Source of the DNA: an uncultured Christensenella sp. | GTDB lineage: Bacteria > Bacillota > Clostridia > Christensenellales > UBA1242 | Length of the DNA stretch: 64,000 nt | Direction of reading: 5' to 3' | Assembly (NCBI GenBank): GCA_910586385.1 | Contig: CAJUGX010000001.1 | Location: forward strand, 144,702-208,701 | In this document: piece after piece, positions 10,979 to 49,300 of the stretch | Position numbering within the stretch: the stretch's first letter is position 1 | Layout: every line of letters starts with the position of its first letter | Translations under genes and position numbers: made by a program | Notes under the pieces: model-generated | Seen by the model: the letters and a program-made list of their open reading frames with translations, nothing else | The model's database searches: none | What the model was told of the DNA's origin: nothing

Positions 10979-12382
10979 ATGGATTGGATGACTAACTGGA
11001 TTTTTGAACTTTTTTATAGTTTGCAAAAATCAATTTGTTATGTCATTGATTTCATACGAGAAATTTTCTATATACTTGCGGGCCTTAAACCCGTCACAAT
11101 AGGCGGAAAACAAACTGATTTACTATCCCACTTTATCCTTTCAGATACAGTCAGAACAACTTTCTTTTATATCTTTTTAATTGCAGTCATCTTGCTTGTT
11201 GTGTTTGTCCTTATTGCGATTATACGAAGCGAATATGCCAACGGAGAAAACAAAAAATCAAAAGCATTGATTTTGGGCAAAGCCTTTCAAAGTTTTGCAA
11301 TCTTTCTCATGGTGCCATTTCTTTTGGTTGCAGGAATAACGCTGACAAATGTTGTTATGGGTGCGATCAATCAAAGCATGAATCCATTTGTTTTGGAAAC
11401 TGGTGGCACTGCAACGATTGGCGGACAAATTCTTGTCACAAGCGGACAGCACGCTTATATCGGAGACGAAAGCATAAGAAATGAAATCGAAAGAATGTTC
11501 TTGACTGGTGAACTCAACTACTTTGATATGGGAGTTGTCAGTCAGTATTACAATTTGAGAAACATTGATTTTCTCATTGGAATTTTTGGCTCTATTGTGA
11601 TTATGGTGATGTTTGTTATGAGTGCTGTCACTTTCATACAAAGAATATTTGACATTGTTCTCTTGTATATCATCTCGCCCGTAAGTGTAAGCACAATCCC
11701 CGTTGACGACGGTGCAAGATTTAAAATATGGCGTGACATGACAATATCAAAAGTCTTGGGTGCTTATGGAATTATTCTGTCAATGAATTTGTTTTTCATT
11801 ATCATTCCGCAAATCTCATCAATTGTATTTTTCGACAACGCCTTTAAAAATGGAATTGTCAAAATCTTGTTCCTTATTGGTGGTGCCTTTGCAGTCACAA
11901 AAGCAAATCTTGTTATTGCACAACTCACAGGCAATCAAGCAGGACAAAACGAAACACAACAATTGTTTAGAAATATGCAGACTGGCGGACATATCATGAA
12001 AGCAACTCTTGGCGCAGGTGCTGCTGTTGGTGGTGCTATTCTTGGCGGAAAGAAATTTACAGACACGCGAAAATCGACACGTTCTTCAATGGCAGGACTT
12101 AAACGATCATTCACAGACAACCCAAGCAAACAATATATCAACAAATCTTCCGAGCCAAGCAAACTTGCAAAATATGGTGGAATGGGAACAAGAATTGCGA
12201 CCATGCCTATTGGAATGATGAAAGACTTGGCAAGTGGCGGACTTGTTGGAATGGGCAAAAACTTTATTCCAAGAGTTAGAAATATTGCACAGGGCGACAG
12301 TTTTGTCAACCATGCACAAGGTAAATCAGTTTTAAATAAGGAGCCAAATAATGCGAATAATACCGCGAAACACGAAGGTTAA
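10979..12382 (+). CDS. Polytopic membrane protein, VirB6/TrbL-like
   Basis: At least 6 hydrophobic segments. Position between the pilin-like gene and VirB4. Gly/Ala-rich C-terminal tail. Confidence 0.55.
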   Translation: MDWMTNWIFELFYSLQKSICYVIDFIREIFYILAGLKPVTIGGKQTDLLSHFILSDTVRTTFFYIFLIAVILLVVFVLIAIIRSEYANGENKKSKALILGKAFQSFAIFLMVPFLLVAGITLTNVVMGAINQSMNPFVLETGGTATIGGQILVTSGQHAYIGDESIRNEIERMFLTGELNYFDMGVVSQYYNLRNIDFLIGIFGSIVIMVMFVMSAVTFIQRIFDIVLLYIISPVSVSTIPVDDGARFKIWRDMTISKVLGAYGIILSMNLFFIIIPQISSIVFFDNAFKNGIVKILFLIGGAFAVTKANLVIAQLTGNQAGQNETQQLFRNMQTGGHIMKATLGAGAAVGGAILGGKKFTDTRKSTRSSMAGLKRSFTDNPSKQYINKSSEPSKLAKYGGMGTRIATMPIGMMKDLASGGLVGMGKNFIPRVRNIAQGDSFVNHAQGKSVLNKEPNNANNTAKHEG

Positions 12383-16841: not shown

Positions 16842-17978
16842 ATGGAAGAAAATAAAATAAGCAAAGCAAAAGGCCTTTCAATTACAATGATTATTCTTGC
16901 AATTGTGGTGGGCTTTGGATTTCTCATTGGACTGGCACAAGCTGCCGACAGAGACAAACTTTTTCAAGAAACAAATCCAGAAATGGAATTTTACTTCTTT
17001 GATGAAAATGGCAGATTCCTAACCTATTGGGATAACTATGAAAATTACAATGTTGAGGTTAATATCCCAAAAACATATTCTTTGACATCAAAAAAAGTTG
17101 CAATGCACAGAGAAGCAACATCACAGAGCGACCTAACATCTTACGCTAAAAAACTTGGCATAGAAGATTACACGATAACTGACATTTCTGGCTATGTGCA
17201 AAATGGAAATTCTCAATATTATCGAACAAGATACAGAATTGATTTTGAATGGCGAAAAACAATCACAGGAACTCAATACACCACAACAATCATTGGGCGA
17301 GATTTGTTTAGGAACACTTCGCGCTATCGTTCTTTTAATATCCCAAATACAGTTAAGACAGTTGAATGGTCCGCATTTTGTGGAACACATGGGCACACAG
17401 AAATAGTTTTTCCAGAAGGCGTTGAAAGTCTTGAAGGCGGAGTTTGCTTTGGCAATTCAAACCTAAAAACAATCTCTCTGCCAAGCACTTTAAAATATAT
17501 CGGAAGTCAAGCTTTTGAACAATGTCACAAAGTTGTCGAGCTTGTTTTGCCGGACAGCGTTGAAACAATCTCTTGGAGTAGTTTTAATAGAATGACAAAA
17601 CTTGAAACTCTAACCCTTTCAGCAAATTTGCAAACAATTGCCAGCTATTCAATTTCATGGTGTTATAAACTTAAAACAGTAAATTTCAAAGAAGGAAACC
17701 GCACTATTGGTGAGAAAGCATTTGAAGATTGCACTGCTTTGGAAGAAGTCAATTTGCCAAGCACTTTGACAACAATTAAATCAAAAGCATTTGACGGTTG
17801 CACGAGCCTAAATAAAGTGATTTTAAATGCTGCTTCTGTTGTAAAGATTGATAATGACGCTTTCCCAGAAAATGTTGAAAAGTTTTATGTGAAAGACGAG
17901 ATTTATGAAGAATATTTGAACAGCGCTTATTGGACTGGATTGACAGACAAAATAGCAAAAATTTCTGAAATGAATTGA
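16842..17978 (+). CDS. Membrane-anchored BspA-type leucine-rich-repeat protein
   Basis: N-terminal TM. Repeated IP.TV..I...AF..C..L..V.LP units. Confidence 0.7.
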   Translation: MEENKISKAKGLSITMIILAIVVGFGFLIGLAQAADRDKLFQETNPEMEFYFFDENGRFLTYWDNYENYNVEVNIPKTYSLTSKKVAMHREATSQSDLTSYAKKLGIEDYTITDISGYVQNGNSQYYRTRYRIDFEWRKTITGTQYTTTIIGRDLFRNTSRYRSFNIPNTVKTVEWSAFCGTHGHTEIVFPEGVESLEGGVCFGNSNLKTISLPSTLKYIGSQAFEQCHKVVELVLPDSVETISWSSFNRMTKLETLTLSANLQTIASYSISWCYKLKTVNFKEGNRTIGEKAFEDCTALEEVNLPSTLTTIKSKAFDGCTSLNKVILNAASVVKIDNDAFPENVEKFYVKDEIYEEYLNSAYWTGLTDKIAKISEMN

Positions 17979-17987
17979 GGTGCAATA

Positions 17988-18299
17988 ATGACAGAAAAAC
18001 AATACGATAAATTTAGAAACACTATTGATAAAGAGATCGAAGAATATAAACGCGAAGTTTGCAACAATGCCCCTATCCATGTTTATGAAAGATTTTATGA
18101 AATTCATGCTTACGAAGAAATTTATGATTTTCTTTGTCATGACGCTATAAATCATGACATTAAGGGCTTCCCTGCAAAAAATATTTTAGATCACTTTTAT
18201 TGTCAATTTATGAAAACAGACTATGACTTAACGCAAGAAGATTTATATGATTTTTTGGAAGAAGAAACAAAGCTCTATAAATCTCAAAGCGAATTGTGA
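17988..18299 (+). CDS. Hypothetical protein (paralog of 18665..18994)
   Basis: SD GAGGTG. Shares the EI(E/D)(E/D)(Y/F)(K/E)RE...FP.(K/E)N(I/V)L...DL.D(F/M) pattern with 18665..18994. Confidence 0.55.
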   Translation: MTEKQYDKFRNTIDKEIEEYKREVCNNAPIHVYERFYEIHAYEEIYDFLCHDAINHDIKGFPAKNILDHFYCQFMKTDYDLTQEDLYDFLEEETKLYKSQSEL

Positions 18300-18306
18300 G
18301 GAACTT

Positions 18307-18663
18307 ATGAAACAAAAATATTTGATTAGAGGTGAACTCTATGATCCAATCCTATTTGGTGATGAAGATTCCGATTGGGTTGGAGACGGTGAAGATCCAA
18401 CTTGTGGCGACTGCGGTTGTCATGTTGGTGAACAACATTTGGACGGTTGTGATATTGAACGCTGCCCAAGATGTGGCGGACAAATGCTGTCTTGTGATTG
18501 CGGAACAAAATATATCATCAACGAAGAAGATATGAAAGATTTGCCACAAATCATTGAAGAACAAAAGATTGTCAACGAAGGACTTGAAAGAGAAATACAA
18601 GCAATCATTGAAGCTCATGAAAAGAAAAAACAAGAACAGAAAGATGATAATTCGGAGATGTGA
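18307..18663 (+). CDS. Cys-rich putative zinc-binding protein
   Basis: ORF track 18247..18663. ATG at 18307 follows GAGGAA. CGDCGCH...C..ERCPRCGG...CDC. Confidence 0.55.
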   Translation: MKQKYLIRGELYDPILFGDEDSDWVGDGEDPTCGDCGCHVGEQHLDGCDIERCPRCGGQMLSCDCGTKYIINEEDMKDLPQIIEEQKIVNEGLEREIQAIIEAHEKKKQEQKDDNSEM

Positions 18664-18664
18664 A

Positions 18665-18994
18665 ATGACTGAAAAAGAAGATTTTAAATTGACGTCTTTG
18701 ATTTTAAGAGAAATTGACGATTTTGAGAGAGAAATGCTTGGTAAAGACAGCGAATATCTTTTTGAAAATGCAAGAGAAATTTATGCAACAAAATTTATCG
18801 GTGATTGTCTGGTTGATTATAACTTTCTAAAAGATAAGGACTATAACCTTTTCCCAAAAGAAAATGTATTGCGTTCTATCACAGAATTATATTTGAGATT
18901 TCATGACGAGATTTCAGAAAGTGATTTGTCAGATATGTTTACAGAATACGAAACTCAATTGAAGAAGATTGCAAATTGTGGAAGTGAGATGTAA
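18665..18994 (+). CDS. Hypothetical protein (paralog of 17988..18299)
   Basis: ORF track 18554..18994. The ATG at 18665 lies directly after the upstream stop (GGAGATGTGAAATG). Confidence 0.55.
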   Translation: MTEKEDFKLTSLILREIDDFEREMLGKDSEYLFENAREIYATKFIGDCLVDYNFLKDKDYNLFPKENVLRSITELYLRFHDEISESDLSDMFTEYETQLKKIANCGSEM

Positions 18995-18996
18995 AC

Positions 18997-19956
18997 ATGG
19001 AACAATATGAAATTGATTATATTAAGTCCAACTTGCAATCCTATCTTGAAACAAAAGGAATTAGAACAGACAAATTTTTCACTTGCATAAATCCAGAACA
19101 TTCAGATCAACACCCGTCTATGAAATACTTTGATGACTACAAAATTCACTGTTTTGGTTGTGGCGCAACCTATGATTTGTTTGGTGCAATTGCAGCAATA
19201 GAACATTTGGATCGTAAAGAAGCATTTAAAAAAGCAATTGATTATTATGAGAGAAGGACACTGACACCAGATACAATTATTAAGCAAAAAACAGTAAAAA
19301 ATGAACAAAAACCTGCAAAAAACTATGAAAAAGCATATAAATACTGGCAAAATGCTTTAAAAGACAATTTTGAAGCACAAGAATATTTGCTTTCTCGTGG
19401 TATTGATTTGGCGACTGCAAACCGTTTTGGATTAGGCTTTAATAGCTTTTATTTTGAGAAAACAAATACAAGACTTAATGCGATCACAATCCCCCTTTCA
19501 AAAAATTGTTTTTCTGCAAGAAATATAAATCCAAATGAAGAAATGAGATATTACAAAACAAAAGACAGTGATGTTGATATTTTCAATAAGCAAGCGATGA
19601 CAAACAAGCAACCTATTTGTGCAATAACCGAAGGCGAATTTGATTGTTTAAGTTTTGAAACTTTAAATGTTAATTGTGTTGGGCTTGGAAGTGCCAACAA
19701 TGTAAATCTTTTCATTGAAAGTGAGAAAGACAAAAATAAAACTTTTATTATCGCGCTTGACAATGATGAAGCAGGACAAAAATGGGCACAGAAATTGAAA
19801 GAGTATTTCAAAGAAAACAAAATCAAATTTGCAGAGTTTGACAATTGCGGATACAAAGATCCAAACGAAGCGTTAGTCAAAGATAAAAGTGCTTTTTCAA
19901 AAAGCATTTTTTCTTTAATCAAAAAACTTGAAAAACAAAACAATGCTGAAATGTGA
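18997..19956 (+). CDS. DnaG-like primase (CHC2 zinc finger plus Toprim)
   Basis: CINPEHSDQHPSM...HCFGCGATYD zinc finger. Toprim residues ITEGEFDCLSF and ALDNDEAGQK. Confidence 0.8.
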   Translation: MEQYEIDYIKSNLQSYLETKGIRTDKFFTCINPEHSDQHPSMKYFDDYKIHCFGCGATYDLFGAIAAIEHLDRKEAFKKAIDYYERRTLTPDTIIKQKTVKNEQKPAKNYEKAYKYWQNALKDNFEAQEYLLSRGIDLATANRFGLGFNSFYFEKTNTRLNAITIPLSKNCFSARNINPNEEMRYYKTKDSDVDIFNKQAMTNKQPICAITEGEFDCLSFETLNVNCVGLGSANNVNLFIESEKDKNKTFIIALDNDEAGQKWAQKLKEYFKENKIKFAEFDNCGYKDPNEALVKDKSAFSKSIFSLIKKLEKQNNAEM

Positions 19957-20384: not shown

Positions 20385-21491
20385 ATGCAACAATCAATTT
20401 TTGATTTGTTGGGTAGCGAAGGCGAAAGATTTAAGGCAAAAGAAAGCACTGATTGGAATTGGAGTTTCAAAGATTATCCACAAAGCAACGGACTGAAAGT
20501 ATTTAGTTGTTTTGCTTGTGGTGGTGGCAGCACAATGGGATATAAACTTGCAGGCTTTGATGTTGTTGGCTGTTTGGAAATTGATAAACGCATGAATGAC
20601 CTTTATGTGAAAAATCATAATCCTAAGCATAACTTTGTCATGGATATACGAGATTTTAATAATATCCCAAACAATGAATTGCCACAAGAACTCTTTGAAC
20701 TTGACATCTTGGACGGAAGTCCACCATGCACAACATTCTCTATGGCAGGAAAACGAGAAAAAACTTGGGGAAAGAAAAAGAAATTTCGTGAAGGACAAAA
20801 AGAACAGACTCTTGACGATTTGGCTTTTGTCTTTATTGAAACAGTAAACAAACTTCGCCCCAAGTTTGTTGTCATGGAAAATGTTGAAGGGCTTATGAAC
20901 GGAAATGCTTGGAAGTATGTGCAAAACATATACAAGCACTTTCACGATATTGGCTACAAAGTAAAACACTGGCTTTTAAAAGGCGAACACATGGGGATCC
21001 CCCAGAAGCGCCACAGAGTGTTTTTTGTAGCCACCAGACTTGATTTGGACCTTGATAAGCTCAACATGACATTCAACTATAAACCAATCCCTTTCGGGCA
21101 AATAAAGGCCGATTATGGCTCAAATATGCCTTTATATGACACTTTGCAGAAACTTGTAGTCCATGCAAAATATGGTGATCGAAATTTACAGAACGCTTGC
21201 TTAAAAACACGAGGCAAGAGCTCTTTTTTTAATTACTGTTTTGTGTATGATGAACAAGTCTCCCCAACAATAACCGCCCACTGCAATAATATTCGGTGGG
21301 ATACAAAAACCTTTTTGTCAAAACAAGACATTGTTTCAATCTCAACCTTTCCACAAGACTATAATTTTTTAAGCAAAAGTTTAGACCATGTTTCCTATGT
21401 GTGCGGAATGAGTGTTCCGCCCGTCATGATTAAAAGAGTTGCTGAAAGAATTTATCAACTTTTGAGAGGTGAAAATGAGCGAACTATCTGA
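20385..21491 (+). CDS. dcm: DNA (cytosine-5) methyltransferase, orphan
   Basis: Motif I FSCFACGGGSTMGY, motif IV GSPPCTTFS, motif VI ENV, QKRHRVFF, GMSVPP. No adjacent endonuclease-like gene. Confidence 0.85.
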   Translation: MQQSIFDLLGSEGERFKAKESTDWNWSFKDYPQSNGLKVFSCFACGGGSTMGYKLAGFDVVGCLEIDKRMNDLYVKNHNPKHNFVMDIRDFNNIPNNELPQELFELDILDGSPPCTTFSMAGKREKTWGKKKKFREGQKEQTLDDLAFVFIETVNKLRPKFVVMENVEGLMNGNAWKYVQNIYKHFHDIGYKVKHWLLKGEHMGIPQKRHRVFFVATRLDLDLDKLNMTFNYKPIPFGQIKADYGSNMPLYDTLQKLVVHAKYGDRNLQNACLKTRGKSSFFNYCFVYDEQVSPTITAHCNNIRWDTKTFLSKQDIVSISTFPQDYNFLSKSLDHVSYVCGMSVPPVMIKRVAERIYQLLRGENERTI

Positions 21492-22558: not shown

Positions 22559-22771
22559 ATGAACAGACTTTTGGAACTTTCAGCAGTCATGTTTAAGGAA
22601 TATCCAGACTGCGTGAATATGAAACAATTACAAGAAATGCTTGGAATAAAACGAACGAAAACTTATGAATTACTACAAAATGGCGAAATTAAAGCAAAAA
22701 AGATAGGCAAAGACTACAAGATACCTAAGTATAATGTGCTTGCCTATCTTTTTAATGAGGAACAATTATGA
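22559..22771 (+). CDS. xis: Excisionase/HTH DNA-binding protein
   Basis: ORF track 22547 (GTG). ATG at 22559 follows GAGG. MKQLQEMLGIKRTKTYELLQNGEIKAKKIGKDYKIPK. ATGA overlap with int. Confidence 0.65.
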   Translation: MNRLLELSAVMFKEYPDCVNMKQLQEMLGIKRTKTYELLQNGEIKAKKIGKDYKIPKYNVLAYLFNEEQL

Positions 22772-24045
22772 CAGGTAAAACGGAAGTTATCAATGGAATC
22801 TACTATTTGACAATTTACTACAAAGACTCTCTCAACCGCCACAGAAGAACAAGAATTAAAACTGACTTGCCAGAACGCGGAAATAAGAAAGCTGCTGAAA
22901 AACTCTTGAAAGAAAAACTGGAAAACTTTGATATTGCAGAATACGAAAGTGTTTCAGATGAAAGAATAGTTAATAAAAATATAATCTTTATTGATTATAT
23001 TGAACAATATGTTTTAGATAAGAAGAAAGAGTTAAGTCCAGCAGCATATTATTCTTACGAAAACCGCGTGAAAACCATAAAAGAATATTTTGGAAATAAA
23101 TTGTTGTTGAAAGATGTGACCTATCATCATATTGAAGATTTCTATGATTATCTTAGAAATGAACGCGGAAACACTAACACAACAATAAAACATTATGCTG
23201 TCATTTTATCGCCAGCATTACGAAAAGCATATAGAGATGACTTGATCCCCAAAAATCCCTACGAATTTATGCCAAAACTTAAAAGAGAAAAACACAAAAC
23301 AGAGTTTTATAACAAAGAAGAGTTAGAAACTCTTTTTTCTTTTACTGATAAAACCCGATTGGGACTTATTGTCCGAGTGGCTGCTTTTTATGGATTTAGG
23401 CGAAGTGAATTGTTGGGATTAAAATGGAAGTCTATTGATTTCAAAAAGAAAATCATAACTGTTGAAAACAAAATCATAAGAATAAACGGACAACTTTATC
23501 AGTCTGAAAAACTTAAAACAGACGCAAGTTTAAGATCTTTGCCATTATTGCCCAAAATTGAAGAATTGCTTTTAAAACGCAAAGAAGAAATTGAATGCAA
23601 TAAAAAGCTCTATGGCAAATCTTATATCCACAACTTTGATGAATATGTTTTTGTTGACGATTACGGAGACATTATCTTCCCCGATTGGGTATCAAATAAT
23701 TTCAGATTGTTGTTAAAGAGAAACAATCTTAAACACATTCGCTTTCACGACTTGCGACATAGCTGCGCCAGCCTTTTGCTTGCAAATAATGTGCCGATGA
23801 AGAATATCCAAGAATGGCTTGGACACGCCAATTACAGCACAACTGCCGATGTCTATTCTCACTTGGACTTTTCATCTAAAATCAGATCTGGGGATATTAT
23901 TGGAACACAACTTTCAGAATATGATTATAAAGACGCTTTAAGCAAGAAAGATTTGGAACTTGAAATAAAGAGATTAAACCGCTTGCTTGAAGAAAAACAA
24001 GCACTTTTAAACAAGAAAAAAATTGCCGACAGCGGAATGGGATAA
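22768..24045 (+). CDS. int: Tyrosine site-specific integrase
   Basis: FYGFRRSELLGLKWKSIDF, HDLRHSCASLLL, LGHANYSTTADVYSHL. Confidence 0.9.
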   Translation: MTGKTEVINGIYYLTIYYKDSLNRHRRTRIKTDLPERGNKKAAEKLLKEKLENFDIAEYESVSDERIVNKNIIFIDYIEQYVLDKKKELSPAAYYSYENRVKTIKEYFGNKLLLKDVTYHHIEDFYDYLRNERGNTNTTIKHYAVILSPALRKAYRDDLIPKNPYEFMPKLKREKHKTEFYNKEELETLFSFTDKTRLGLIVRVAAFYGFRRSELLGLKWKSIDFKKKIITVENKIIRINGQLYQSEKLKTDASLRSLPLLPKIEELLLKRKEEIECNKKLYGKSYIHNFDEYVFVDDYGDIIFPDWVSNNFRLLLKRNNLKHIRFHDLRHSCASLLLANNVPMKNIQEWLGHANYSTTADVYSHLDFSSKIRSGDIIGTQLSEYDYKDALSKKDLELEIKRLNRLLEEKQALLNKKKIADSGMG

Positions 24046-24343: not shown

Positions 24344-24418
24344 TGGTGCTCCCGTCAGGATTTGAACCCGAGACCTTCGTTCCGAAGACGAATGTGATAT
24401 CCATTTCACTACGGGAGC
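24344..24418 (-). tRNA. tRNA-Arg (anticodon UCG)
   Basis: Hand-folded 75-nt cloverleaf: acceptor GCTCCCG/CGGGAGC, D arm GTGA-AATGGATA-TCAC, anticodon stem TTCGT/ACGAA with loop CTTCGGA, T arm TCGGG-TTCAAAT-CCTGA, encoded CCA. Confidence 0.85.
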
Positions 24419-24672: not shown

Positions 24673-26676
24673 ATGAAGAAAAAACTTAAACCATTTCTTA
24701 TTGCACTCGTTATTTTGGTCATCATTGGCTATGCTGGCGGATCAGCTCTTGCATACTTCCTTGATGGACAATATAATGAAATAACTGAAGCGATTAGATC
24801 TGATTGGTCGTTTATTGGTGCGGCTCTTGGCGTTGTTCTTGCTATCGTGTATGCTGTTATGTCAAAACCTAAAAAGAAAGAAGCAGTAAAAGACAAGGGA
24901 AAAACTGCTGCCGGCGACGAAATGAAATTGTCTTATGACTCTAAGTGGCTCGAACCAAAAAATTTTGACAAAGAATTTGGGCTTATCCTGACAAACTGGG
25001 CAAACCTCCCTTCTGTCAAAAACACGGGTATCGTTTTCAGAAACACAATTGAGAATGGAAAATACCAAATCGCAATGAAAGACGAATATCACTGCCTGAT
25101 TATAGGAACAACCGCATCTGGTAAAACTTCTTTTTGTATCATTCCAACAATCAGAATTTTGGCACACTCTGGTGAAAAGCCACATATGGTTGTCGCAGAC
25201 CCAAAAGGAGAACTTTGGGAAAAGACGAGTAAGATTATGGAAGATGAGGGGTATCGTGTATTAACCCTTGATTTGAGAGATCCATTTTCTTCAACCAGAT
25301 GGAATCCAATGGAACATGCATTTGATGTTTATCACAAGGGTAAAAACTGCAAAAACACAGTGAAAAAATGTTCAAACGGAACAAAACCAAAGGATGCCGG
25401 ATTTAAGGAACTTCCTGGAGTCAAATATGGTGCAGAATGGTTTGGGTTTGAAGGAGTTGCTTATCCAGACGAAGAACAACTTAGAGTGGCAGTTTCAAGC
25501 GCAGAACAAGTTTATGTTGACTTGGCGCAAAACGAACTTAAAGAAGTGTGCAACACTGTTGCTCCAAAGTCTAAAAACTCAAGCGACCCAACTTGGGAAG
25601 AAGGTGCTCAGGATTATCTCTATGGATGCGCCCTTGCAATGCTTGAGGATAGTTTGAATCCAGAACTTGGCATGACAAGAGAAAGATTCAACTTCTACAA
25701 CCTTTATAAGATTGCAACATTCCGTGATCCAGATGCTGACGCACCATTTGAAACAGTAAGAAAATATCTTCTTCAAGGTCGTGACGACGCAACATCCAAT
25801 GTTCCAAATTTGACATCTGCAGTTATCAACAATGCCCCAAACACCACAAAATCATACATTGGTGTATTGAATGGTAAGATTTCATTTATGAACGATATTG
25901 GTATCTCATACTTGACCTCACAAAGTGACATAGATTTTGAAGATTTCACAAGCAAACCAACAATTCTTTATCTCGTCATCCCAGACGATAGAGAAGAACG
26001 ACACAACCTTGCAATCTTGTGTATTTCTCAACTTTATAAACGTTTGGTTGACAAAGCAAATTCATATCCTGGACAAAAGTTGCCACAACACGTATACTTC
26101 ATCTTGGATGAATTTGGTAATATTCCTCCAATTCCAAAATTTGACAGTATGATCACCGTATCTCGTGGAAGAAACATTCTTTATGAAATGGTTGTCCAAT
26201 CTTATACTCAGATTGAAACAAAATATGGTCAAGAAGCAGCAAAAACAATCATCGGAAACTGCAATGCTCAAATATTTATTGGATGTGATGACCAACCAAC
26301 TCTTGAGGCATTTTCAAAGAAGTGCGGTGATGTTCAGTTGACTCACGAAGAGACAAACACCTCTGTTTCCAAGAGTGACAAAGACAAAGACGGAAAGCAG
26401 ACCAGCACAAGCACCCAGCTTCAAAGAACAACCCGTCCACTTATCACACCTTACGAACTTGGTCAGATTCCATTTGGAACTGTCGTTGTAAAACTTTTCA
26501 GATACAACCCAATCCAGATGAAACTTACTCGAAACGACCAAGTACCAATGTTCTATGTAAAACTTGCTCGTAAGGAAATTGGACAGACTAAGAGTCTTGA
26601 CACTGCAGCAGTTTATTATGATATCAAGATGAGAAACAAAAAGATTTTGAAGCAAACAAGTCCATTCAATTTCTAA
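24673..26676 (+). CDS. virD4: Second type IV coupling protein (VirD4/TraG family), orphan
   Basis: Walker A LIIGTTASGKTS, Walker B VYFILDEFGNIP. Collinear motif similarity with 3264..5453 (DPKGEL, LDLR.P, RWNP, VVQSY.Q, FSKKCG). Confidence 0.85.
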   Translation: MKKKLKPFLIALVILVIIGYAGGSALAYFLDGQYNEITEAIRSDWSFIGAALGVVLAIVYAVMSKPKKKEAVKDKGKTAAGDEMKLSYDSKWLEPKNFDKEFGLILTNWANLPSVKNTGIVFRNTIENGKYQIAMKDEYHCLIIGTTASGKTSFCIIPTIRILAHSGEKPHMVVADPKGELWEKTSKIMEDEGYRVLTLDLRDPFSSTRWNPMEHAFDVYHKGKNCKNTVKKCSNGTKPKDAGFKELPGVKYGAEWFGFEGVAYPDEEQLRVAVSSAEQVYVDLAQNELKEVCNTVAPKSKNSSDPTWEEGAQDYLYGCALAMLEDSLNPELGMTRERFNFYNLYKIATFRDPDADAPFETVRKYLLQGRDDATSNVPNLTSAVINNAPNTTKSYIGVLNGKISFMNDIGISYLTSQSDIDFEDFTSKPTILYLVIPDDREERHNLAILCISQLYKRLVDKANSYPGQKLPQHVYFILDEFGNIPPIPKFDSMITVSRGRNILYEMVVQSYTQIETKYGQEAAKTIIGNCNAQIFIGCDDQPTLEAFSKKCGDVQLTHEETNTSVSKSDKDKDGKQTSTSTQLQRTTRPLITPYELGQIPFGTVVVKLFRYNPIQMKLTRNDQVPMFYVKLARKEIGQTKSLDTAAVYYDIKMRNKKILKQTSPFNF

Positions 26677-30452: not shown

Positions 30453-30601
30453 ATGAAAAGACAAATTAGATTTGTTACTATAAGTTTTTAATACAAAACA
30501 ATAATCGAATCGTGTTATTGCTAGTTTCAAAATTTACAGCCCTTTCGCTGTTTTTTTATTAATTAATTAATCTAGAAATTTTAACTTTTGTTTTTTAAAA
30601 T

Positions 30602-30642
30602 AACTTGTGTAACTTTCCTAATTTGAGTTGCAACTTGTGTAA
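30602..30642. repeat. Iteron-like direct repeats AACTTGTGTAA x2, 30 bp apart; candidate replication origin
   Basis: 30602-30612 and 30632-30642 are identical. AAATTTCTAAAATTT and AAATTTTCTAAATTT follow. All lie ~200 bp upstream of rep. Confidence 0.6.
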
Positions 30643-30835
30643 ATTATATAAAATTTCTAAAATTTGTAGTTTAATTTAAATTTTCTAAATTTCAGTAAAA
30701 TATTTTTATAAAAATTATTATATATTTTTTAGAACAAGCACCTAAAATCTTTATTAATATAAAGTAGTTTTAAATAATGTTCTTGCGAGGCTAAACTATA
30801 TACGAGCATTGCTCAACAAAACGGAGGAATATAAA

Positions 30836-31663
30836 ATGTACAAAATTGAATTTGCAAACGGAATGATTATTGTTTCAAAAAAATTTAATACTGAAAAGGC
30901 AGATAAAAAGTGAAATGGGTTAAGGCGTAGCGATAAGCCTAAACTAAATATGGATAGAAAAGATTATAATAGAACAATCAATCGCAAAAGATATGAACTA
31001 TATAAACTGGACTTGACAAATTATTTTGCTAAATGAATTACGCTTACCTTTGAACATTATATAGAGTTTGACAGAGTCCTAAATGCCTTTAAACAATTTA
31101 TAAAAAGCATAAGGCGGAATTATGGCGACAATATTAAATATATAAGGGCTATTGAAGTGCAAGGCACAAGCCACTTTTTCCACATACATATAATATTATT
31201 GAATGAAGAAAAATTAAAAATAGGTTATCATGATATTAAAAAGTTTTGAGGTTATGGATTCGTCAATATTAAAAATGCCTATAATATACAAGGCTTAATA
31301 AAATATATTACCAAATATAAAGATGATACAATCCAACAAGGCAATCGCTTTTATACCTATTTTCCCATAGGTGCAAGAATAATAACTTGAAGTCAAGGAA
31401 TTAAAAATATTGATGTACCAGCATTTGAGATTGACGAAAACTTATTATATAGTATTTTAGAAGAGCAATACAAAGAATATATTGGTGTACTTGACTACAA
31501 TACTTTTGAAAATGGGCATTACTTTTTAAATAATGATAATAAATTAACATATTATTTGGATAAAATATATTTACCTAGTGAAAAAGATTTTATGCAAAGG
31601 CTAGTTGAAAGGCTTAAAACATCTAATATAGCAATGGTAGATAATAAACAAAATAATACTTAA
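30836..31663 (+). CDS. rep: Rolling-circle replication initiator (HUH endonuclease, pC194/Rep_1-like); readable only with TGA=Trp (table 4)
   Basis: GGAGG lies 8 nt before the ATG. 275 codons with no TAA/TAG and four in-frame TGA (30911, 31034, 31247, 31388). Motifs ITLTF, HFFHIHIIL (HUH), GLIKYITKY (catalytic Tyr). Absent from the standard-code ORF track. Confidence 0.75.
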
Positions 31664-31853
31664 ATATGATTATATTGTTAAAACACAAATAATCTTGGCT
31701 AAAATTAATGTAGTTAGCCATAAAATAACTCAAAATAAAAGTAGGTATAACAACTTACTTTTATTTTTTATCTATTTATAGTAAACACTTATTCGTTTTG
31801 TTTGACAAAATATGTAGTTGTATGTTATGATTGAATAGATAAAAGGAGTATAT

Positions 31854-32429
31854 ATGGAGATAAAAAAGCCATGCAAAGCAGAAGTTGAAAAGTATTTAAT
31901 GCTTTGCGATACGCAATCAAACTATGTAGAACAAGAAAAGGCATTAAAAAAGTTGTTTGCCCTTTACCCTAACAATAATGATATTAGCGAAGTTTTATTA
32001 AAGGTTAATATACTCAATGACTTTTATAGCACAAATATATTTAATACATATAAGGTAGCCGAGTATATTGTTTCGCTAAACATAGATAAAAAATTAAAAG
32101 CAAAAGATTTGTCTGTTGTAAATGATATTGCTGACAAAACAAAAAACGGCATAAACAGGAATATATACTCTTTTGCAACCAAATATTGTGTTCATCATCT
32201 TGGCAATGAATTTCCTATATTTGATAGTTATGTGGCAAAAATGCTAATGCACTTAAATAAGCAAGATAAGTTTTTCAAATTCTCTTATGAAGATTGTAGA
32301 GATTACAAAAAGTTCTATTCTATTTTAAACGCATTTAGAGAATTTTATAAGTTAAACGACTTTACTTTAAGACAACTAGATATTTATTTATGGCAAGCAG
32401 GTAAAGATTATTTCACAAAGAAATATTAA
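31854..32429 (+). CDS. Hypothetical protein
   Basis: SD AAGGAG. 191 aa. A bidirectional hairpin follows. Confidence 0.55.
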   Translation: MEIKKPCKAEVEKYLMLCDTQSNYVEQEKALKKLFALYPNNNDISEVLLKVNILNDFYSTNIFNTYKVAEYIVSLNIDKKLKAKDLSVVNDIADKTKNGINRNIYSFATKYCVHHLGNEFPIFDSYVAKMLMHLNKQDKFFKFSYEDCRDYKKFYSILNAFREFYKLNDFTLRQLDIYLWQAGKDYFTKKY

Positions 32430-32466
32430 AAATAAAAGAGGGCTGAAAAGTATCAAGCCTTCTTTT

Positions 32467-32775
32467 TTATTGTTTTAATTTTAATAATGAAATGATTGCA
32501 GTTTTCTTTTCTGGGCTGGCAGTTTCTAAAAGTTGTAATATTTCCTCATCTTGTTTATAAGCTGAAATATTATAATAAAAAAATTCTTCGGTGGTAGTAT
32601 TACAAGCCTCTAAAATATCCATTAAAGTTTCAAAGGTTGGAGCAAATGTTTTGCTTGTTTCAAGTCTATGAATATAGCACTCATTTTTGCCTATTTCCAT
32701 TGATAGTTTTCTTGCCGACAAATTTGCACGATTTCTAATAAAGCCTATTCGGTTTATAAGTTCATTATTGTCCAT
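32467..32775 (-). CDS. XRE-family HTH repressor (cI-like)
   Basis: N-terminal HTH_3 pattern RIGFIRNRANLSARKLSMEIGKNECYIHRLE. SD AAGGAGG. Divergent from the downstream operon. Confidence 0.75.
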   Translation of the reverse strand: MDNNELINRIGFIRNRANLSARKLSMEIGKNECYIHRLETSKTFAPTFETLMDILEACNTTTEEFFYYNISAYKQDEEILQLLETASPEKKTAIISLLKLKQ

Positions 32776-32890
32776 AGCCTAACCTCCTTTATTACAATTA
32801 ATTATAAATGATATTGAGGTCGTGCTAATTTAGAAGATAGTTCCAAATTGACTTTAAATTAAATATTTTATTGGCTTGTAGTAAATATAT

Positions 32891-32919
32891 TTGACTTTTT
32901 ATTGAGAAATATATATAAT
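32891..32919 (+). promoter_or_regulatory. Consensus-like promoter TTGACT-17-TATAAT for the 32944 operon
   Basis: Read directly. Located in the divergent intergenic region with the XRE gene. Confidence 0.6.
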
Positions 32920-32943
32920 AAGGTTGTATCATAAGGAGTTGTA

Positions 32944-33921
32944 ATGGATAATTCTGTACAGACAATACTAAAAGAATTAAATGAATATAATGATACTTAT
33001 AATTCAATTCAAGCTAAGTATGAATATCTAGATTTACCAGATGAGGAAGAGTGGTTTGAAAAACGGCTAAAAGTAAGCTATAAGGATGCTCCGAAGTCAA
33101 GAGGAGGCAAAACAGTTGATGCTTTCATAGCAAATGCAATAGTTTTGCCAATAAGTATAATCGTTGGAATTTTCTTTTATTTAATTATGACTAATACAAA
33201 TGATTATTTGAGTAAGTTGGTTGGTCAAATAATCCTTGGAGCCGCTATAATTGTGGTTGTAGTTTGTTTAGTAATAGATATTTATAATCTTATACAAATA
33301 ATTATAGAAAAAATAAGCAACAAAAAATATAGGCAATGGAAATCAGAGTATGACGAGAGATACCAAGAAAAGTATGAACGCTTAGAAGAATTATATAAGA
33401 AAAAAGTAAATGAAATAAAACAAAAAAACAGAGAAAATATTGATAAAAAGGTATTATTATTAAAAGAAAACAGCAAAAAGTTTTCTCATTATCCTGATGT
33501 TGTTCTAGAAAACGCAAGAGAGTTTATAAATATTTTTGAGATGGGTCGAGCCGACAATATAAAAGAGGCTATAGAAATATTTATTAAAGACGAAAGAGAA
33601 AAGAAGATATTGGAAGAACAGCGAAGGCGAACTGATATGCTGGAATATGAAATTAGACAGAGAGCAATAAAAGATGAAGAAACAAATTATAGATTGCAAC
33701 AAGAGGCACAAGAACATCAACAAAATTTACAACGAGAAGCAAGAAAGCAAACTGAAATTATGCAAAAACAATTAGATGAACAAAAACGAGCAAATAGAGA
33801 GGCAGAAAGAAACGCAAGAAGAAATGATTTTGGTCCTGCTGGTTGTATTCAATGTCCACACTATGGGGCTTGTAAAACTGAGGGTTTTAAGAAGTGTAGA
33901 AAAAGCCTAGGCTATAAATAG
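32944..33921 (+). CDS. Membrane/coiled-coil protein with C-terminal Cys cluster, unknown function
   Basis: Two TM segments, a long Glu/Lys/Arg/Gln coiled-coil region, and C-terminal GCIQCPHYGACKTEGFKKC. Confidence 0.55.
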   Translation: MDNSVQTILKELNEYNDTYNSIQAKYEYLDLPDEEEWFEKRLKVSYKDAPKSRGGKTVDAFIANAIVLPISIIVGIFFYLIMTNTNDYLSKLVGQIILGAAIIVVVVCLVIDIYNLIQIIIEKISNKKYRQWKSEYDERYQEKYERLEELYKKKVNEIKQKNRENIDKKVLLLKENSKKFSHYPDVVLENAREFINIFEMGRADNIKEAIEIFIKDEREKKILEEQRRRTDMLEYEIRQRAIKDEETNYRLQQEAQEHQQNLQREARKQTEIMQKQLDEQKRANREAERNARRNDFGPAGCIQCPHYGACKTEGFKKCRKSLGYK

Positions 33922-34091
33922 ACAGCAATGTATTTTTGCTGTCTTTTACTTTAAAAAAACAAAATACTAGATATTAAAACTTAGCGTTTAAAAGCACAAA
34001 ATGTAAAAGCAATAAAATATATAAACACAATATTAAGAACGGTGTAAGACGCATTTAAACGGCTTGTACTAACCGATACAAAGGAGTTTAT

Positions 34092-34598
34092 ATGAAAAGC
34101 AATATTGAGAAGTTTAATGACTTAATAAATTTAGATAATTTTGGCATTGCAACATTGCAAAGGTTTTTTAAGTGGAGTTTTCCAAAGGCTAAATCTACCT
34201 TGGAAGATTTAATAAAATATGGTGCAGTTGAAAAGTTGGGAAATGTCTATAAGGTTATTTCAGCTGAAAAGTTTAAAAAATATGGGTTGCAGATATTTTT
34301 ATATAGCAAGTATGAGAATATATCAAAATCACTTTCAAATATGATTTTTGAAGAACTGGTTGAAGACGATAGATTTATGAAAATAGTCAACGATACTTTT
34401 AAACTAAATTTAGATATAGAAAACATTTCAAAAAAGCAAAGACAAGAAAATATTAATTTATTTCTTTCAAACACTGCAAGAAAATTTATAATTGAAAAGT
34501 TGGCTATTAAATTTTTAAGCAAATTGTATGTTGATTTTGCACCACATATTTTAGATAAATATTGGTTTGATTGGCTTGATAAGAACTGCCCTACTTGA
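34092..34598 (+). CDS. Hypothetical protein with FtsK-gamma-like winged-helix N-terminus (tentative)
   Basis: GIATLQRFFKWSFPKAKSTLEDLIKYGAVEK resembles the FtsK gamma pattern (LQR...A..L...LE..G.V). Confidence 0.45.
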   Translation: MKSNIEKFNDLINLDNFGIATLQRFFKWSFPKAKSTLEDLIKYGAVEKLGNVYKVISAEKFKKYGLQIFLYSKYENISKSLSNMIFEELVEDDRFMKIVNDTFKLNLDIENISKKQRQENINLFLSNTARKFIIEKLAIKFLSKLYVDFAPHILDKYWFDWLDKNCPT

Positions 34599-34660
34599 TA
34601 TTAATAATAACATAAACTTCCCCTTAAAAATAATAAATCCGCTTTAAATAAGGAGTTAAA

Positions 34661-35146
34661 ATGATAACGATAAATAAACTAGAAGAATTAGAAAGATATG
34701 TTAAAATAGTGCCAGCAGATAAGCACGACGGAAAGCATAAACAAATTATATTTGAGTTTATAGAAAATGGCGAGAAAGTTGATGTTTTATTTAATTGTGC
34801 TGTTGACTTAGTTTATGAATGCCAAAAAGTAAGCAAAAAAGACTATGATTGTTGCGTGTATGTAAAGGCAAAAACAATTACTTTTAACTATTCTTTTACT
34901 TGCAATAAAATATTTGCTGACGACTTAATTATAAAAGATTGGTGTGTTTGTGAAAGCATATTAATACATAAAAACATAAGTGGAAATATTTTAAAGTGCA
35001 AACAAATTACTTGCCTATCTTCTATTGATTGTAAAGAAATTTACACACAAAAAATTAACTGCAAAAACATTAAAACGCAACTACTTGATATTGATAATAA
35101 AATTAGGCTTACAAATTTATCTTGCGAGAAAGTTGAATTTGTTTAA
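34661..35146 (+). CDS. Cys-rich hypothetical protein (short repeats, beta-solenoid-like)
   Basis: SD AAGGAG. 161 aa. Confidence 0.5.
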   Translation: MITINKLEELERYVKIVPADKHDGKHKQIIFEFIENGEKVDVLFNCAVDLVYECQKVSKKDYDCCVYVKAKTITFNYSFTCNKIFADDLIIKDWCVCESILIHKNISGNILKCKQITCLSSIDCKEIYTQKINCKNIKTQLLDIDNKIRLTNLSCEKVEFV

Positions 35147-35160
35147 AGGGGGGGCAAAAA

Positions 35161-35505
35161 ATGGTTTTTGGCTATGGCTTTATTGACATAATAATAAAAA
35201 AGAGTGTTTTAACAAAAACACAAATAGACGAGATTATAAAAAATTATAAAGTTGCGGAAGGTCATTTTGATAATAACCTTATTGTAATTCGTGCTGGTAT
35301 GAGTGATTATGATGCCGAACAAACTGCAAAAGAAATTAAAAATAGTTTTAACCTTTCTCTCAATAACGATTTTGTATTTTTAAAACAACTAAATTTGATT
35401 GAGCCTTGCAAGTGGTTAAAAGTATGTAAGTTGAAAAAAGATTTACAAATAGCAAATGAAAAGTTTACAAAAGGCTTTCCATATTTTGAATTAATAGCCG
35501 ACTAA
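35161..35505 (+). CDS. Hypothetical protein
   Basis: SD GGGGG. 114 aa. Confidence 0.5.
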   Translation: MVFGYGFIDIIIKKSVLTKTQIDEIIKNYKVAEGHFDNNLIVIRAGMSDYDAEQTAKEIKNSFNLSLNNDFVFLKQLNLIEPCKWLKVCKLKKDLQIANEKFTKGFPYFELIAD

Positions 35506-35528
35506 TTAATTTAAAAGGAGTAAGCAAA

Positions 35529-35699
35529 ATGAAAGTTGAACAAGAATATGAAAAAGACTTAATAGAGATTTTATTAAGCCTTTTAGAGAAAGATTTAAAA
35601 ACATTTTTAGAAATTTCAATTCAAACATTTGATTTGAAAGGGTTGAAAGAAATTTTAAAGATTATAAAAACTGAAAGTTTAACGGACGAAATGCAATAA
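35529..35699 (+). CDS. Possible 56-aa protein
   Basis: AAGGAG lies 8 nt before the ATG. Below the ORF-track length cutoff. Confidence 0.35.
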   Translation: MKVEQEYEKDLIEILLSLLEKDLKTFLEISIQTFDLKGLKEILKIIKTESLTDEMQ

Positions 35700-35773
35700 G
35701 CAATATATTTTATTAAGTTAAATGTCGCGATTGATTGTAGACGCATTTAACAAGCTCATAGACGCATTGTAAT

Positions 35774-46300: not shown

Positions 46301-49300
46301 CCAACAAAAGCATCTCCTGTGTTAATCTTGTAGAAGGTGTTTTCCGCTCCATTTGTTTCTGATTTGAAAGTTACAATAGCACCACTTTCATTCATAACAT
46401 TTGCAGAATTTGGATTATACAATCCCAAAATTTTATTGTCTGGATCATCCGCTGTATAAGATGTTGGTTTTGTAGAAATGCCCTCAACTTTCCAGCCAAT
46501 CTCTGAGCCAAGCTTGATGTAGTTTGTACCATCAAGTTTGATTGATTTTCCATCATAGTATTCAACAATGATTCTGCTTGTAAGATTTGGAGAAACAGTG
46601 AAGAGTTCGCTGTCATCTAAAATCTTGCTTCCACTGTCGTTGTTTTGAGCCCCTTCAAGAGTTCTGAATGTTGCTGTATAATCGAAATCTGCATAACTCT
46701 TTCCAAGATCAATGTTGATTGCAACACCTCGGTTTGAAACTGTGATTGGGACAATCTTTGTTTCTGCAACGTTTGTTCTGTTTGTCAATCTTACAAAATA
46801 GTTTGCACCAGAAACAGCCGAAGACTTGAAGATAAAGTTGAGAAGTCTGCTTTCAGCAAAGAGAGTCAACTCTTCACTCTTTGCCAAGTCTTCCGCAAAA
46901 ACCGTTTCTCTGTTGAGGTTGTAATTTGGTGTATTTGTAGACACTCTTATGATTGAATCATTGATAACGGTCACAGTATATTGTGTCAAGACTTTGTTAA
47001 CTTTGACATCAAAGGTAACTGTCCCTCTAGCACCAGTGTTGAGAATTGTAAACCTGAGGTTGATTCTTCCGTCTTCTGAATCTTGCAAAATCACCTTGTC
47101 GGTTGTTTCACTTGTGATTGATTTCACATCCGCACCATCAAGTTCGCCTTCGCTGAAATCAACTCTAAGATTTGAAATGTTTGAAATTGAGATATCCCAA
47201 TGCTTTTTGATGTCTGTTGTTGTTTCAACATAATCGTCTTTTCCAACTCTGCGAGCACTTGAAACCTCAATTCTCTTCTTGTATCCATCTTCTGTCTTCA
47301 TTGCAAAGGTTGCAGAAGTATTGAAGAAATTGTTGTAGTCTTTTGAAACTCTTTGGCTTTCTGTTCCGTTTGCTGTTGTTGCAGAAATATATTCTGTTGT
47401 TGAAGAATTGTTTTCTCCCTCTGGAGTTGTTTCAATTCCATCAGGGGTTGGATAATTTGCTTTCACGATAACATTCTTTGCAACAGAGTATCTATAAGAA
47501 ACGACAAATCTTGAAATCTCTTTGCCCTTGAATCTTCCTATAACATTCAATGACTTGACAAGTCCTTGTTCTTCTTCTCCAACATTCTCTGGAGTGATTT
47601 GTACTTTTACTGCCTTTCCGGTTTCTGTAGCATCAACCAATTCGTATCCATCACCAGCCACAAACTTGTATGTTGTGTTTGTTGTTGAAGCAAGTCCAAC
47701 TGTTGTTGGTTTTGCGTTTTCTACAACATCACTTGGTGTAATCGTAGAAACAGCATCCCCCTCTTCAATCAATGCTTCAAATGAGATTTGTCCGTATCTC
47801 CAATTGAGATCCTGAACAGTCCTGTTTTCTTTTTCATTGAAAGTTGCTGTCACAGTAAGTGGGAGTGCAAATGTATAAACCGACTCTTCATCGGCATAAA
47901 GCGCAGCTCCTTCAGAATCGCTTGCCTTTTGAGTAGATCTGATGACAACATCAAAGTCAAGGTCAATATCTTCTACGAGTGGAGCGATTTCAAGTTTAAG
48001 CCCATCAAAGTTGAGATTTCCTTCATCGTTTTGAGTCACGCTTCCTGTCAATTCAAGCACATCTGAAATCTTCAAAGAAACGCATTCATAATAAGTTTTC
48101 TTGGCATCAAAACCTTGATCCTGTTCAAATTCAACCTTCTTATACTCGCCACCTTCCAAGACAAAGTATTCCTCACCAACAACTCTTTCTTTGTCGTCTG
48201 TGATGTAATAATATTCTCTATAGTTATCTGAAGCATTGTTGAGTCTCAATGAGACTTCAACAATTTCACGATTTGGATCTTTTGAAGCAAGATTTGCAAT
48301 CAAATCACCAAATGTGTAAATCTTTCCACTTTCAACTGATGTTTGTGGATCATCCCATGCAAAGTAACTTTCAACATCCAAAGAAACCTTGACAACAACA
48401 CCTTCTTTTGTGTAAACACCAAGTTCGAAACTGCTGTCTTTTGAAATATTTTCTTTTGGATTCAAAATAATTGTCTTGTATGGAACTTTTTCTTTCTCAA
48501 AATAAGTAACTCCATCTTCAAATGTTGCGCCACTTGCAAAAGTTGCTTCAACATATTTGCCATCTACAAATGTATAATATTTCTTGTTTCTGTTGACAGT
48601 TTTGTCTGTCGTCTTCTTATATTCAAGCTTTCCTTCTGCCAAGAACTCTACAATAAGATCTTCAAGTTTTACTCCGCAAGTGATGTAGCCCTCAGCCCCG
48701 TTGATTGCGCTTGCGCTGATATCTCCCCAGAGATATCCATCTTCTTTGTACTCAAGTTCTTTCAACTCTGTGCCATTGTAAACAACGAACGTCTTTCGAT
48801 TTCCAGCTTCTTCACGGATTTCAACATCAGCATAAGTCCATTCTGCTTTATCCACAAGCACTGCATCGTGGTCAAGAATTATGCTGTCTGTTGCAGAGGT
48901 TTTGATTTCTGTGCCTGCTGCAAGCCAAACTTTCTTAAATTTCAAAGCATCCAAGAGGTCAAGTTTGTTTCCTTTGAGTGAAGCACCAAAATCTTCCATC
49001 TCACCATAAACTCCACCATCATTTGTTCTGATGTTTGGAATAAAGACTTGCTCGCCACTTCCAGCGACAATTGATTCAGAATAGTTGCCATTTTCATCTG
49101 CAACAAGACTATTTGAAACTTCGTCACGATAGATTTCAATTGAGTATTGTCTTGTTTGGTTGAGCTTGAATGTATATTCCATCGCAGAACCTACAATCTC
49201 AACACCATTCACTTTCCAGCATTTTTCAATAACAACTGTTTGAGCAGAACCAACATAACTTTCATTGGCGTAAGCAATGTTGATCGTTGCGCCATCATAA

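Follow-up and report, generated by a model that had tools for sequence, protein, structure and literature searches.

A 64,000-nt stretch of DNA from an uncultured Christensenella sp. (contig CAJUGX010000001.1; hereafter the window, always meaning the whole stretch) carries a small integrative element with a replication initiator gene, Rep, that contains four in-frame TGA codons read as tryptophan (Trp). What we describe here is one replication gene, conserved across deep divergence and apparently locked by opal codons, in a mobile-element family of standard-code Clostridia. We favor the reading that Rep is a functional gene in which the four UGAs encode Trp and act as a translational lock, to be opened by efficient decoding in trans, and we place its probability at about 0.5. 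The initial annotation, made from the sequence letters alone, had already singled out the recoded Rep; it could not show that the host and the element use the standard code, that one gene is recoded, and that this state is conserved clade-wide.

The Rep gene and its TGA codons

At the sequence level, the open reading frame (ORF) was as first annotated: it starts at the ATG at 30836 with GGAGG 8 nt upstream, ends at the TAA at 31661-31663, and spans 275 codons, with TGA at codons 26, 67, 138, and 185 and with no TAA or TAG. It also lacks any TGG. The reported peptide contexts (KK-W-NG, AK-W-ITLTFEH, KKF-W-GYGF, and IIT-W-SQG) and motifs (ITLTF, HFFHIHIIL, and GLIKYITKY) are all present, and the product under table 11, the standard bacterial code, is 25 aa. 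The length of the frame had been taken as evidence of coding and is indeed far beyond chance: at the base composition of the element, 7.3% of codons should be TAA or TAG, with P~8e-10 for 275 codons free of both, and among 200 shuffles of the element the TAA/TAG-free runs reached 194 codons at most.

The features of the gene are listed below. Labels of the form L0xx denote related loci used for comparison. Fractions of 60 refer to a family alignment of 60 of the 342 Rep relatives that HMMER recovered when 1.8 billion representative proteins were searched in full.

30824..30828, + strand: Shine-Dalgarno sequence GGAGG, 8 nt before the Rep ATG; kept in all close lineages
30836..31663, + strand: Rep gene, HUH rolling-circle type, 275 codons with TGA as Trp; PF23343, phrog_3584, dN/dS 0.10-0.15
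30911..30913, + strand: sense TGA, codon 26; Trp in the nearest relatives, TGA at the equivalent codon in L013, L014, and L016
31034..31036, + strand: sense TGA, codon 67; aromatic column, adjoining motif 1 ITLTF (31037-31051)
31181..31189, + strand: HUH motif H116-I-H118; both His invariant (60/60)
31247..31249, + strand: sense TGA, codon 138; family-wide invariant Trp, between the HUH motif and the catalytic Tyr
31304..31306, + strand: catalytic Tyr157 in motif 3, GLIKYITKY; Tyr in 59/60
31388..31390, + strand: sense TGA, codon 185; variable column, TTA (Leu) in L007

Read with TGA as Trp, 30836-31663 is supported as an HUH rolling-circle Rep, for which nicking and joining activity is predicted. 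The table-4 translation (table 4, or code 4, reads TGA as Trp) had been expected to match HUH Rep proteins in a profile search, and it did so significantly: Pfam PF23343 (REP_ORF2-G2P) matched residues 66-162 with 58 bits and E=1.2e-15 (gathering cut-off, 27.8 bits), and phrog_3584 'replication initiation protein' matched residues 4-250, nearly the full length, at 1.7e-9. The motif order is that of HUH Reps, with motif 1 (threonines T69 in 56/60 and T71 in 53/60) followed by the two histidines and then by the tyrosine. Of the solved structures, that of the SIRV1 ORF119 Rep is the closest in sequence. Among annotated plasmids, relatives were found on small rolling-circle replication (RCR) plasmids of Staphylococcus, Lactobacillus, Brevibacillus, and Caldicellulosiruptor (~30% identity), and among annotated phages the only one was a remote microvirus Rep (24% identity). 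Annotated plasmid and phage Reps share just 24-33% identity with this one, over part of the length.

The initial annotation regarded all four TGA codons as plausible aromatic positions. In the family alignment, this was confirmed for codon 138, where Trp is invariant (60/60), and for codon 67, where the column is aromatic (F39/W5/Y5). At codon 26, Trp is found in nearer relatives only (10/60), and at codon 185 the column is variable and the claim finds no support. Since the codon-138 TGA comes after the HUH motif and before the catalytic Tyr, there is no active Rep unless it is decoded.

Only three close homologues of this Rep were found among 5.8 billion proteins (95, 82, and 76% identity). 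Their DNA carries the same four TGAs, lineage variants aside: besides the TTA of L007, one close lineage adds a fifth TGA (codon 241) and uses TGG at codon 203. Copies in metagenome-assembled genomes (MAGs; 'uncultured Eubacteriales'; 'uncultured Clostridia', two copies) retain all four. The ratio of nonsynonymous to synonymous substitution rates (dN/dS, or omega), calculated by Nei-Gojobori between the window Rep and the 76-82% relatives, bore out that the frame is coding and under purifying selection: whole-gene omega was 0.10-0.15 at dS ~1, and it stayed at 0.05-0.28 in each segment between TGAs, including the one after the last TGA. As omega is low in every segment, the whole frame is translated as one protein.

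Two observations on single copies can be added. In the Rep copy of L009 (MGBC127298 MAG), codon 261 is an additional TAA (10781-10783), which would cut the last 15 residues, and this copy may be decaying. Protein P0004, from a 934-bp ENA contig, has a CYTH-domain N-terminus fused in frame to a Rep C-terminus, with the junction immediately past the codon-185 position; recombination or a chimeric assembly must have produced it.

Standard-code surroundings and clade-wide conservation

The host uses the standard code and is not a code-4 genome. We considered code 4 for the whole window and rejected it, since the 37 long table-11 ORFs are intact and 8 of them (22%) stop with TGA, together with 23 that stop with TAA and six with TAG. 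Trp is TGG throughout the long ORFs of the window, and internal TGA occurs in Rep alone. The same applies within the element: its other genes present 19 TGG and no internal TGA, and the integrase (8 TGG, 0 TGA) and the helix-turn-helix (HTH) regulator (0 TGA) are readable in the standard code. One of these genes, encoding 168 aa, ends in a real TGA stop with a back-up TAA two codons on. A second candidate for sense TGA, at 17978-18997, was discarded because it consists of small same-frame genes, each with its own TGA stop.

Back-up stops were also seen elsewhere. Where an element gene ends in a genuine TGA, a TAA or TAG often comes within the next 2-5 codons (6/10 cases; window 34596-34604 plus homologous genes in L001, L014, and L016). 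This is suggestive of stops that would limit damage under UGA suppression, the cases being non-independent.

The sense-TGA trait is gene-specific, clade-wide, and old. We verified on DNA 11 Rep lineages, each with 2-5 internal TGAs at Trp positions; at codon 138, eight of them use TGA and three use TGG. Distant lineages, down to E~1e-11 and ~21-34% identity, were sampled via their encoding contigs (L012, L013/L022, L014, L015, L016, L017, L020, and L023), and every one sampled has 2-4 internal TGAs at Trp positions. Several of them sit on 59-70 kb contigs with standard-code flanks. Two further lineages are implied by Reps that are full length on short contigs (table-4 calls) and appear as 85-163-aa fragments on long contigs. 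In an outgroup Rep (E~1e-7), whose integrative element is of another kind, TGG occurs three times and TGA is absent. Fragmentation of Reps to 85-163 aa on long contigs and NCBI genomes was observed in the clusters of P0018, P0022, and P0026.

When Rep was compared with its neighbor genes in eight lineages, Rep contained 25 TGA and 9 TGG vs. no internal TGA and 60 TGG in the neighbors (Fisher P=1e-15, or 4e-9 if the neighbors' TGAs run through by a table-4 gene caller all count as sense). Extending the count to ten lineages, Rep Trp codons are 31 TGA and 10 TGG, a TGA share of 31/41 (76%). This does not differ significantly from the A-ending share at the Lys, Glu, Gln, Leu-TTR, and Arg-AGR codons of the same genes (639/801, 80%; P=0.55). 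Thus, TGA in Rep is a synonym of TGG that drifts neutrally under AT pressure, like in a code-4 genome. Close relatives differ by TTA/TTG<->TGA substitutions, and the TGA count ranges from 2 to 5 among lineages.

T follows none of the 31 sense TGAs vs. a background of 23% (P~7e-4), and 3 of the 10 TGG codons have a following T. UGA-U is the strongest context for release factor 2 (RF2) in Escherichia coli (Poole/Tate). The lack of T after sense TGA therefore suggests decoding in competition with RF2 in a standard-code cell.

The element and its neighborhood

The element that carries Rep and its remaining features are the following:

30550..38871, + strand: integrative element with Rep, ~8.3 kb, GC 26-29%; bounded by comparison with L011
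30602..30645, + strand: two direct repeats AACTTGTGTAA(C/A)TT, 30 nt apart, upstream of Rep; kept in L011
31696..31720, + strand: hairpin TGGCTAA-AATTAATGTAG-TTAGCCA, 33 nt past the Rep stop; candidate double-strand origin/nick site
31732..31767, + strand: terminator-like hairpin with T-run after Rep
31802-31831, + strand: strong promoter-like site for the next gene
31854..32429, + strand: 191-aa protein, standard code, 1 TGG; the L001/L017 orthologue has PF27257 HI_0787_N
32467..32775, - strand: 102-aa XRE/Cro-type HTH regulator; PF01381 3.6e-5, PHROG transcriptional repressor families
32944..33921, + strand: 325-aa membrane and coiled-coil protein, no family-based function
34092..35505, + strand: three small conserved genes (168, 161, and 114 aa), no family-based function
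35774..36754, - strand: 326-aa conserved core protein, with just 5 homologues in the database
37183..38640, + strand: tyrosine integrase; PF00589 1.5e-24, phrog_1 9e-50

The limits were set with L011, a different Clostridia MAG that matches the window from ~30549 to ~38875 with 97-98% identity. The flanks differ: a host terminator precedes the element in the window, and a tRNA-Val plus a terminator in L011. The Rep island has 26-29% GC vs. 33-43% around it. In general, the element occupies different chromosomal sites in different MAGs.

Downstream of Rep, the stem and loop of the hairpin are invariant in five lineages and recur after a 33%-identical Rep (L013 and L022), with DNA fold z-scores of -2.4 and -3.0. 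The hairpin is also a mosaic breakpoint: L009 presents the window-type Rep and hairpin and then unrelated DNA, and L022 presents a distant Rep and hairpin and then near-identical copies of the window's downstream genes. A breakpoint at this place in both loci fits the expectation for an RCR nick site, and the hairpin at 31696-31720 is probably the Rep origin. In L022 (1506-3122, reverse-complement coordinates), the Rep is L013-type, is 33% identical to the window Rep, has TGA at codons 28 and 135, and is joined at the hairpin to close homologues of the 191-aa and HTH genes of the window.

Upstream of Rep, the AACTTGTGTAA repeats are a possible operator or iteron. A CAACTTG-like repeat in this region was tried as a universal nick site and rejected, as it is not kept in other lineages. 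Several lineages have a 68-aa Cys-rich ORF (Trp = TGG) directly upstream of Rep (L001 ~20-225, L003 ~750-955, and also L007, L009, and L010). In the window, L011, and L008, AT-rich non-coding DNA with the two AACTTGTGTAA repeats replaces it, and the upstream recombination breakpoint lies at the Rep ribosome-binding site.

Regarding the other genes, the HTH regulator adjoins Rep in distant lineages too and is probably the repressor of the element. The 326-aa core protein had no Pfam, PHROG, or PADLOC family, and no PADLOC defense-system model matched in the element. Pfam and PHROG scans of the element detected no capsid, terminase, portal, tail, lysis, packaging, or conjugation genes. We also rejected an inovirus or microvirus prophage, as there were no morphogenesis ATPase, coat, or capsid genes and the single phage-database match was the 24% microvirus Rep.

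Further evidence of mobility comes from the serine-recombinase lineage. L002 (sample SRR34282136) is a circular molecule of 9,196 bp with a 30-nt terminal overlap (L002 1-9226), and its attachment (att) site, attP, is TTTGGCTCCCCA. The integrated copy L001 ends (9190-9228) in a tRNA-3'-end-like sequence, read by eye, that shares the GGCTCCCCA core; ARAGORN called no tRNA at this end. Since L002 is circular and has an attP, related elements excise and circularise. Long att direct repeats were sought for the Tyr-integrase lineage of the window and none were found; a short AT-rich core is possible there. Like an integrative mobilizable element (IME), the family presents a site-specific recombinase (of the Tyr type in the window and of the Ser type in L001), att sites, and a circular form. 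It also presents the integrase, regulator, own replication module, 5-15 kb size, and lack of virion genes of a satellite. The element could be either of them.

Some related loci carry cargo: large LRR_5/Big_2 surface-protein genes were found in L016 (1905-4373), L020 (11496-13157), and L021 (6307-7707), the latter two with an additional M23 peptidase. In the window itself, a separate conjugative element in the standard code occupies 2077-24418. It encodes a type IV secretion system (T4SS) coupling protein (3264-5453), a VirB4/TraG-like ATPase (12351-14972), a primase (18997-19956), a DNA methyltransferase (20385-21491), and an integrase (22768-24045) that adjoins tRNA-Arg(tcg) (24344-24418). 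A second coupling-protein gene, also in the standard code, lies at 24673-26676. On the other side, 40345-54564 (- strand) holds an ORF of 4,739 aa that matched no Pfam family at E<=1e-5. Antisense to it, the frame at 46621-54651 (+ strand) runs for 2,676 codons without TAA or TAG and contains 76 TGA; it is presumably a codon-bias artefact.

Decoding of UGA and alternative explanations

ARAGORN found no tRNA in the window element nor in loci L001-L016, circular L002 included. A permissive Rfam scan of the window element gave no known RNA and no family of selenocysteine insertion sequence (SECIS), and no code-change machinery of their own –suppressor tRNA, tryptophanyl-tRNA synthetase (TrpRS), or release factor 1 (RF1)– was found in the elements. 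Lacking a tRNA gene of its own, the element would have to rely on decoding capacity supplied in trans. A donor of this kind is plausible: in the guts of humans and animals, standard-code Firmicutes are hosts to TGA-recoded phages that carry tRNA-Sup(UCA), TrpRS, and RF1, and recoded prophages keep the integrase in the standard code, with recoding proposed as a lysis-lysogeny lock (Borges et al., 10.1101/2021.08.26.457843).

Under the favored reading, in an ordinary cell RF2 would terminate Rep after 25 residues and no Rep would be made, and the integrase, repressor, and cargo genes, with no internal TGA, would be translated normally. Full-length Rep would appear only once UGA is decoded efficiently as Trp. 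Rep could then nick its origin, for which the hairpin 3' of the gene is the candidate, and copy the excised circle by rolling-circle replication. The likeliest donor would be a co-resident or superinfecting code-4 phage with an opal-suppressor tRNA-Trp, whose code switch would serve as the induction signal. More tentatively, the elements may be hitch-hikers that sense the code change, with a TGA-recoded helper phage or other opal-suppressing agent triggering excision-coupled replication.

The system resembles several known ones and is identical to none. Code-4 gut phages and prophages of standard-code Firmicutes/Bacteroidetes (Borges et al.; Nat Microbiol 2022) share the low GC, the in-frame TGA at Trp, the standard-code host, and the integrase in the standard code, and recoding has been proposed to block premature expression in them. 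Here, by contrast, the element is 8-9 kb, with no recognised virion, lysis, or packaging genes and no IMG/VR relatives; it has no suppressor tRNA, TrpRS, or RF1; and the one recoded gene is the replication initiator, whereas replication genes are unrecoded in those phages. Staphylococcus aureus pathogenicity islands (SaPI) and phage-inducible chromosomal islands (PICI) are also small integrated elements with an integrase, an HTH regulator, a replication initiator, and no structural genes, in which a helper brings the replication trigger, as proposed here. Their helper protein binds the repressor, whereas here the trigger would be the helper's suppressor tRNA acting on translation; moreover, no packaging or capsid-redirection genes were found here and helper dependence is hypothetical.

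Reps with PF23343 –from small Bacillota RCR plasmids, microviruses, and SIRV1 ORF119– share the xTLT, HUH, and single Tyr in order and a hairpin adjoining the gene as candidate origin. They differ from the case described here, where an integrative element with a recombinase has sense UGAs in a standard-code host. Bacillota IMEs with RCR-Rep-type relaxases are alike in size, Tyr or Ser integrase, tRNA-adjacent insertion, HUH Rep, leucine-rich repeat (LRR) surface-protein cargo, and conjugative elements nearby, and unlike in that the element here has no oriT or coupling protein inside. To our knowledge, no IME has a recoded Rep or relaxase. The papers available to our literature search gave no prior account of a recoded replication gene in a non-phage integrative element, nor of a code-dependent satellite.

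Rolling-circle Reps are typically needed in tiny amounts, and this counts for a constitutive leaky throttle, in which the host tRNA-Trp(CCA) misreads UGA at a few per cent and serial UGAs keep Rep low or stochastic. The misreading could be intrinsic, as in Bacillus subtilis, or enhanced by a 4-bp anticodon stem or by a G24A/A9C variant. We regard this explanation as the main rival and, on the whole, as less probable than the lock. In its favor, Lovett et al. 1991, as cited in PMC6316719, put UGA-to-Trp readthrough in B. subtilis at ~6%, and ~6.5% of standard-code genomes have a tRNA-Trp(CCA) variant that reads UGA (PMC13092985). Leaky decoding as these sources present it resembles our case in having Trp at UGA, a standard-code cell, and RF2 competition. 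Likewise, the sense TGAs avoid the strongest RF2 context and no suppressor was found in cis. The difference is that leaky decoding is genome-wide and low-level, whereas here 2-5 UGAs sit within one gene family as neutral synonyms of UGG. Four UGAs at 6% would leave ~1e-5 of the normal yield and five <1e-6, so that the simple Leu<->Trp-type changes behind a UGA number of 2-5 among lineages would move expression by orders of magnitude. A neutral TGA share is unexpected if each TGA changes the yield >10-fold, and the TGA stop frequency of the host is normal (22%). Because yield swings between two and five UGAs clash with a neutral codon share, a binary lock is favored over a leaky throttle.

An own, unrecognised product of the element could instead raise UGA decoding on induction, as a non-canonical suppressor RNA, an RF2 inhibitor, or a tRNA-modifying activity. 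No known family covers six of the element's conserved proteins, and suppressor detection is imperfect, a TGA suppressor tRNA being detectable in just 35% of code-4 phages (Borges et al., 10.1101/2021.08.26.457843). Against this stand the lack of any tRNA in all elements (ARAGORN) and of any hit in the permissive Rfam scan, and the fact that gene content beyond Rep, the HTH regulator, and the recombinase varies while the TGAs persist. Thus, we find a self-contained code switch unlikely.

A shuttle or import from a code-4 organism is more doubtful still, with Rep used in a Mollicutes-like host or imported recently and silently into Clostridia. It could draw on the name of PF23343, which refers to Rep proteins with the Spiroplasma plectrovirus ORF2 among them, and on the whole element being translatable under table 4, with TGA stops having nearby back-ups. 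Nevertheless, every long contig (window, L009, L011, L017, and L020) has standard-code flanks, no copy has recoded neighbors, and the trait persists to ~25% Rep identity under purifying selection. Moreover, code-4 organisms have no RF2, and T avoidance after TGA implies RF2 competition.

A decaying pseudogene is effectively refuted by the per-segment dN/dS and the alignment. TGG to TGA is a single transition favored by AT mutation pressure and L009 has its extra TAA at codon 261, but omega of 0.05-0.28 per segment at dS ~1, the lack of frameshifts and of TAA/TAG (P~8e-10), and the same state in 11 lineages with all catalytic residues intact leave it hardly credible. Finally, Clostridia often have selenocysteine (Sec) machinery and code-25 (Gly) phages exist (Borges et al., 10.1101/2021.08.26.457843), but decoding of UGA as Sec or Gly is ruled out by the alignment columns (codon 138 Trp 60/60, codon 67 F/W/Y), together with no SECIS-like family and TGA swaps with TGG and TTA/TTG, never with Cys or Gly codons.

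Several points weigh against the translational lock opened in trans. No suppressor source was found, and no code-4 phage was tied here to these hosts or samples. IMG/VR viral contigs gave no match to the Rep protein patterns (A2 and A4) or to the hairpin, a result that is uninformative for elements without viral markers. In JGI metagenomes, the Rep protein patterns gave none and the hairpin pattern gave one locus, L022. Nor is there support for satellite status, as neither packaging nor capsid-related genes were recognised. The window also has, within 30 kb, T4SS coupling proteins and a VirB4-like ATPase of conjugative elements (3264-5453, 12351-14972, and 24673-26676), so conjugative mobilisation would serve equally well as a vehicle. 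The recoded genes of known recoded phages are the late ones, and their replication genes stay unrecoded (Borges et al., 10.1101/2021.08.26.457843). The B. subtilis readthrough and the leaky tRNA-Trp variants leave room for host-only decoding, the hairpin may, instead of being an origin, regulate the gene that follows it, and the neutrality test has a basis of 41 codons, taken from lineages that are in part related.

In practical terms, table-11 annotation misses or fragments this Rep, which is found full length in catalogues only via accidental table-4 calls on short contigs. Consequently, these elements are annotated as having no replication gene.

Stop-codon recoding as a lock has so far been known for whole phage genomes carrying their own suppressor tRNA. 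If true, the lock proposed here would be a translational, code-based satellite induction, previously undescribed. If it is opened in trans, code switching would be a cellular state readable by other mobile elements, which would reveal hidden dependencies between the mobile elements of gut Clostridia and offer a directly testable system.

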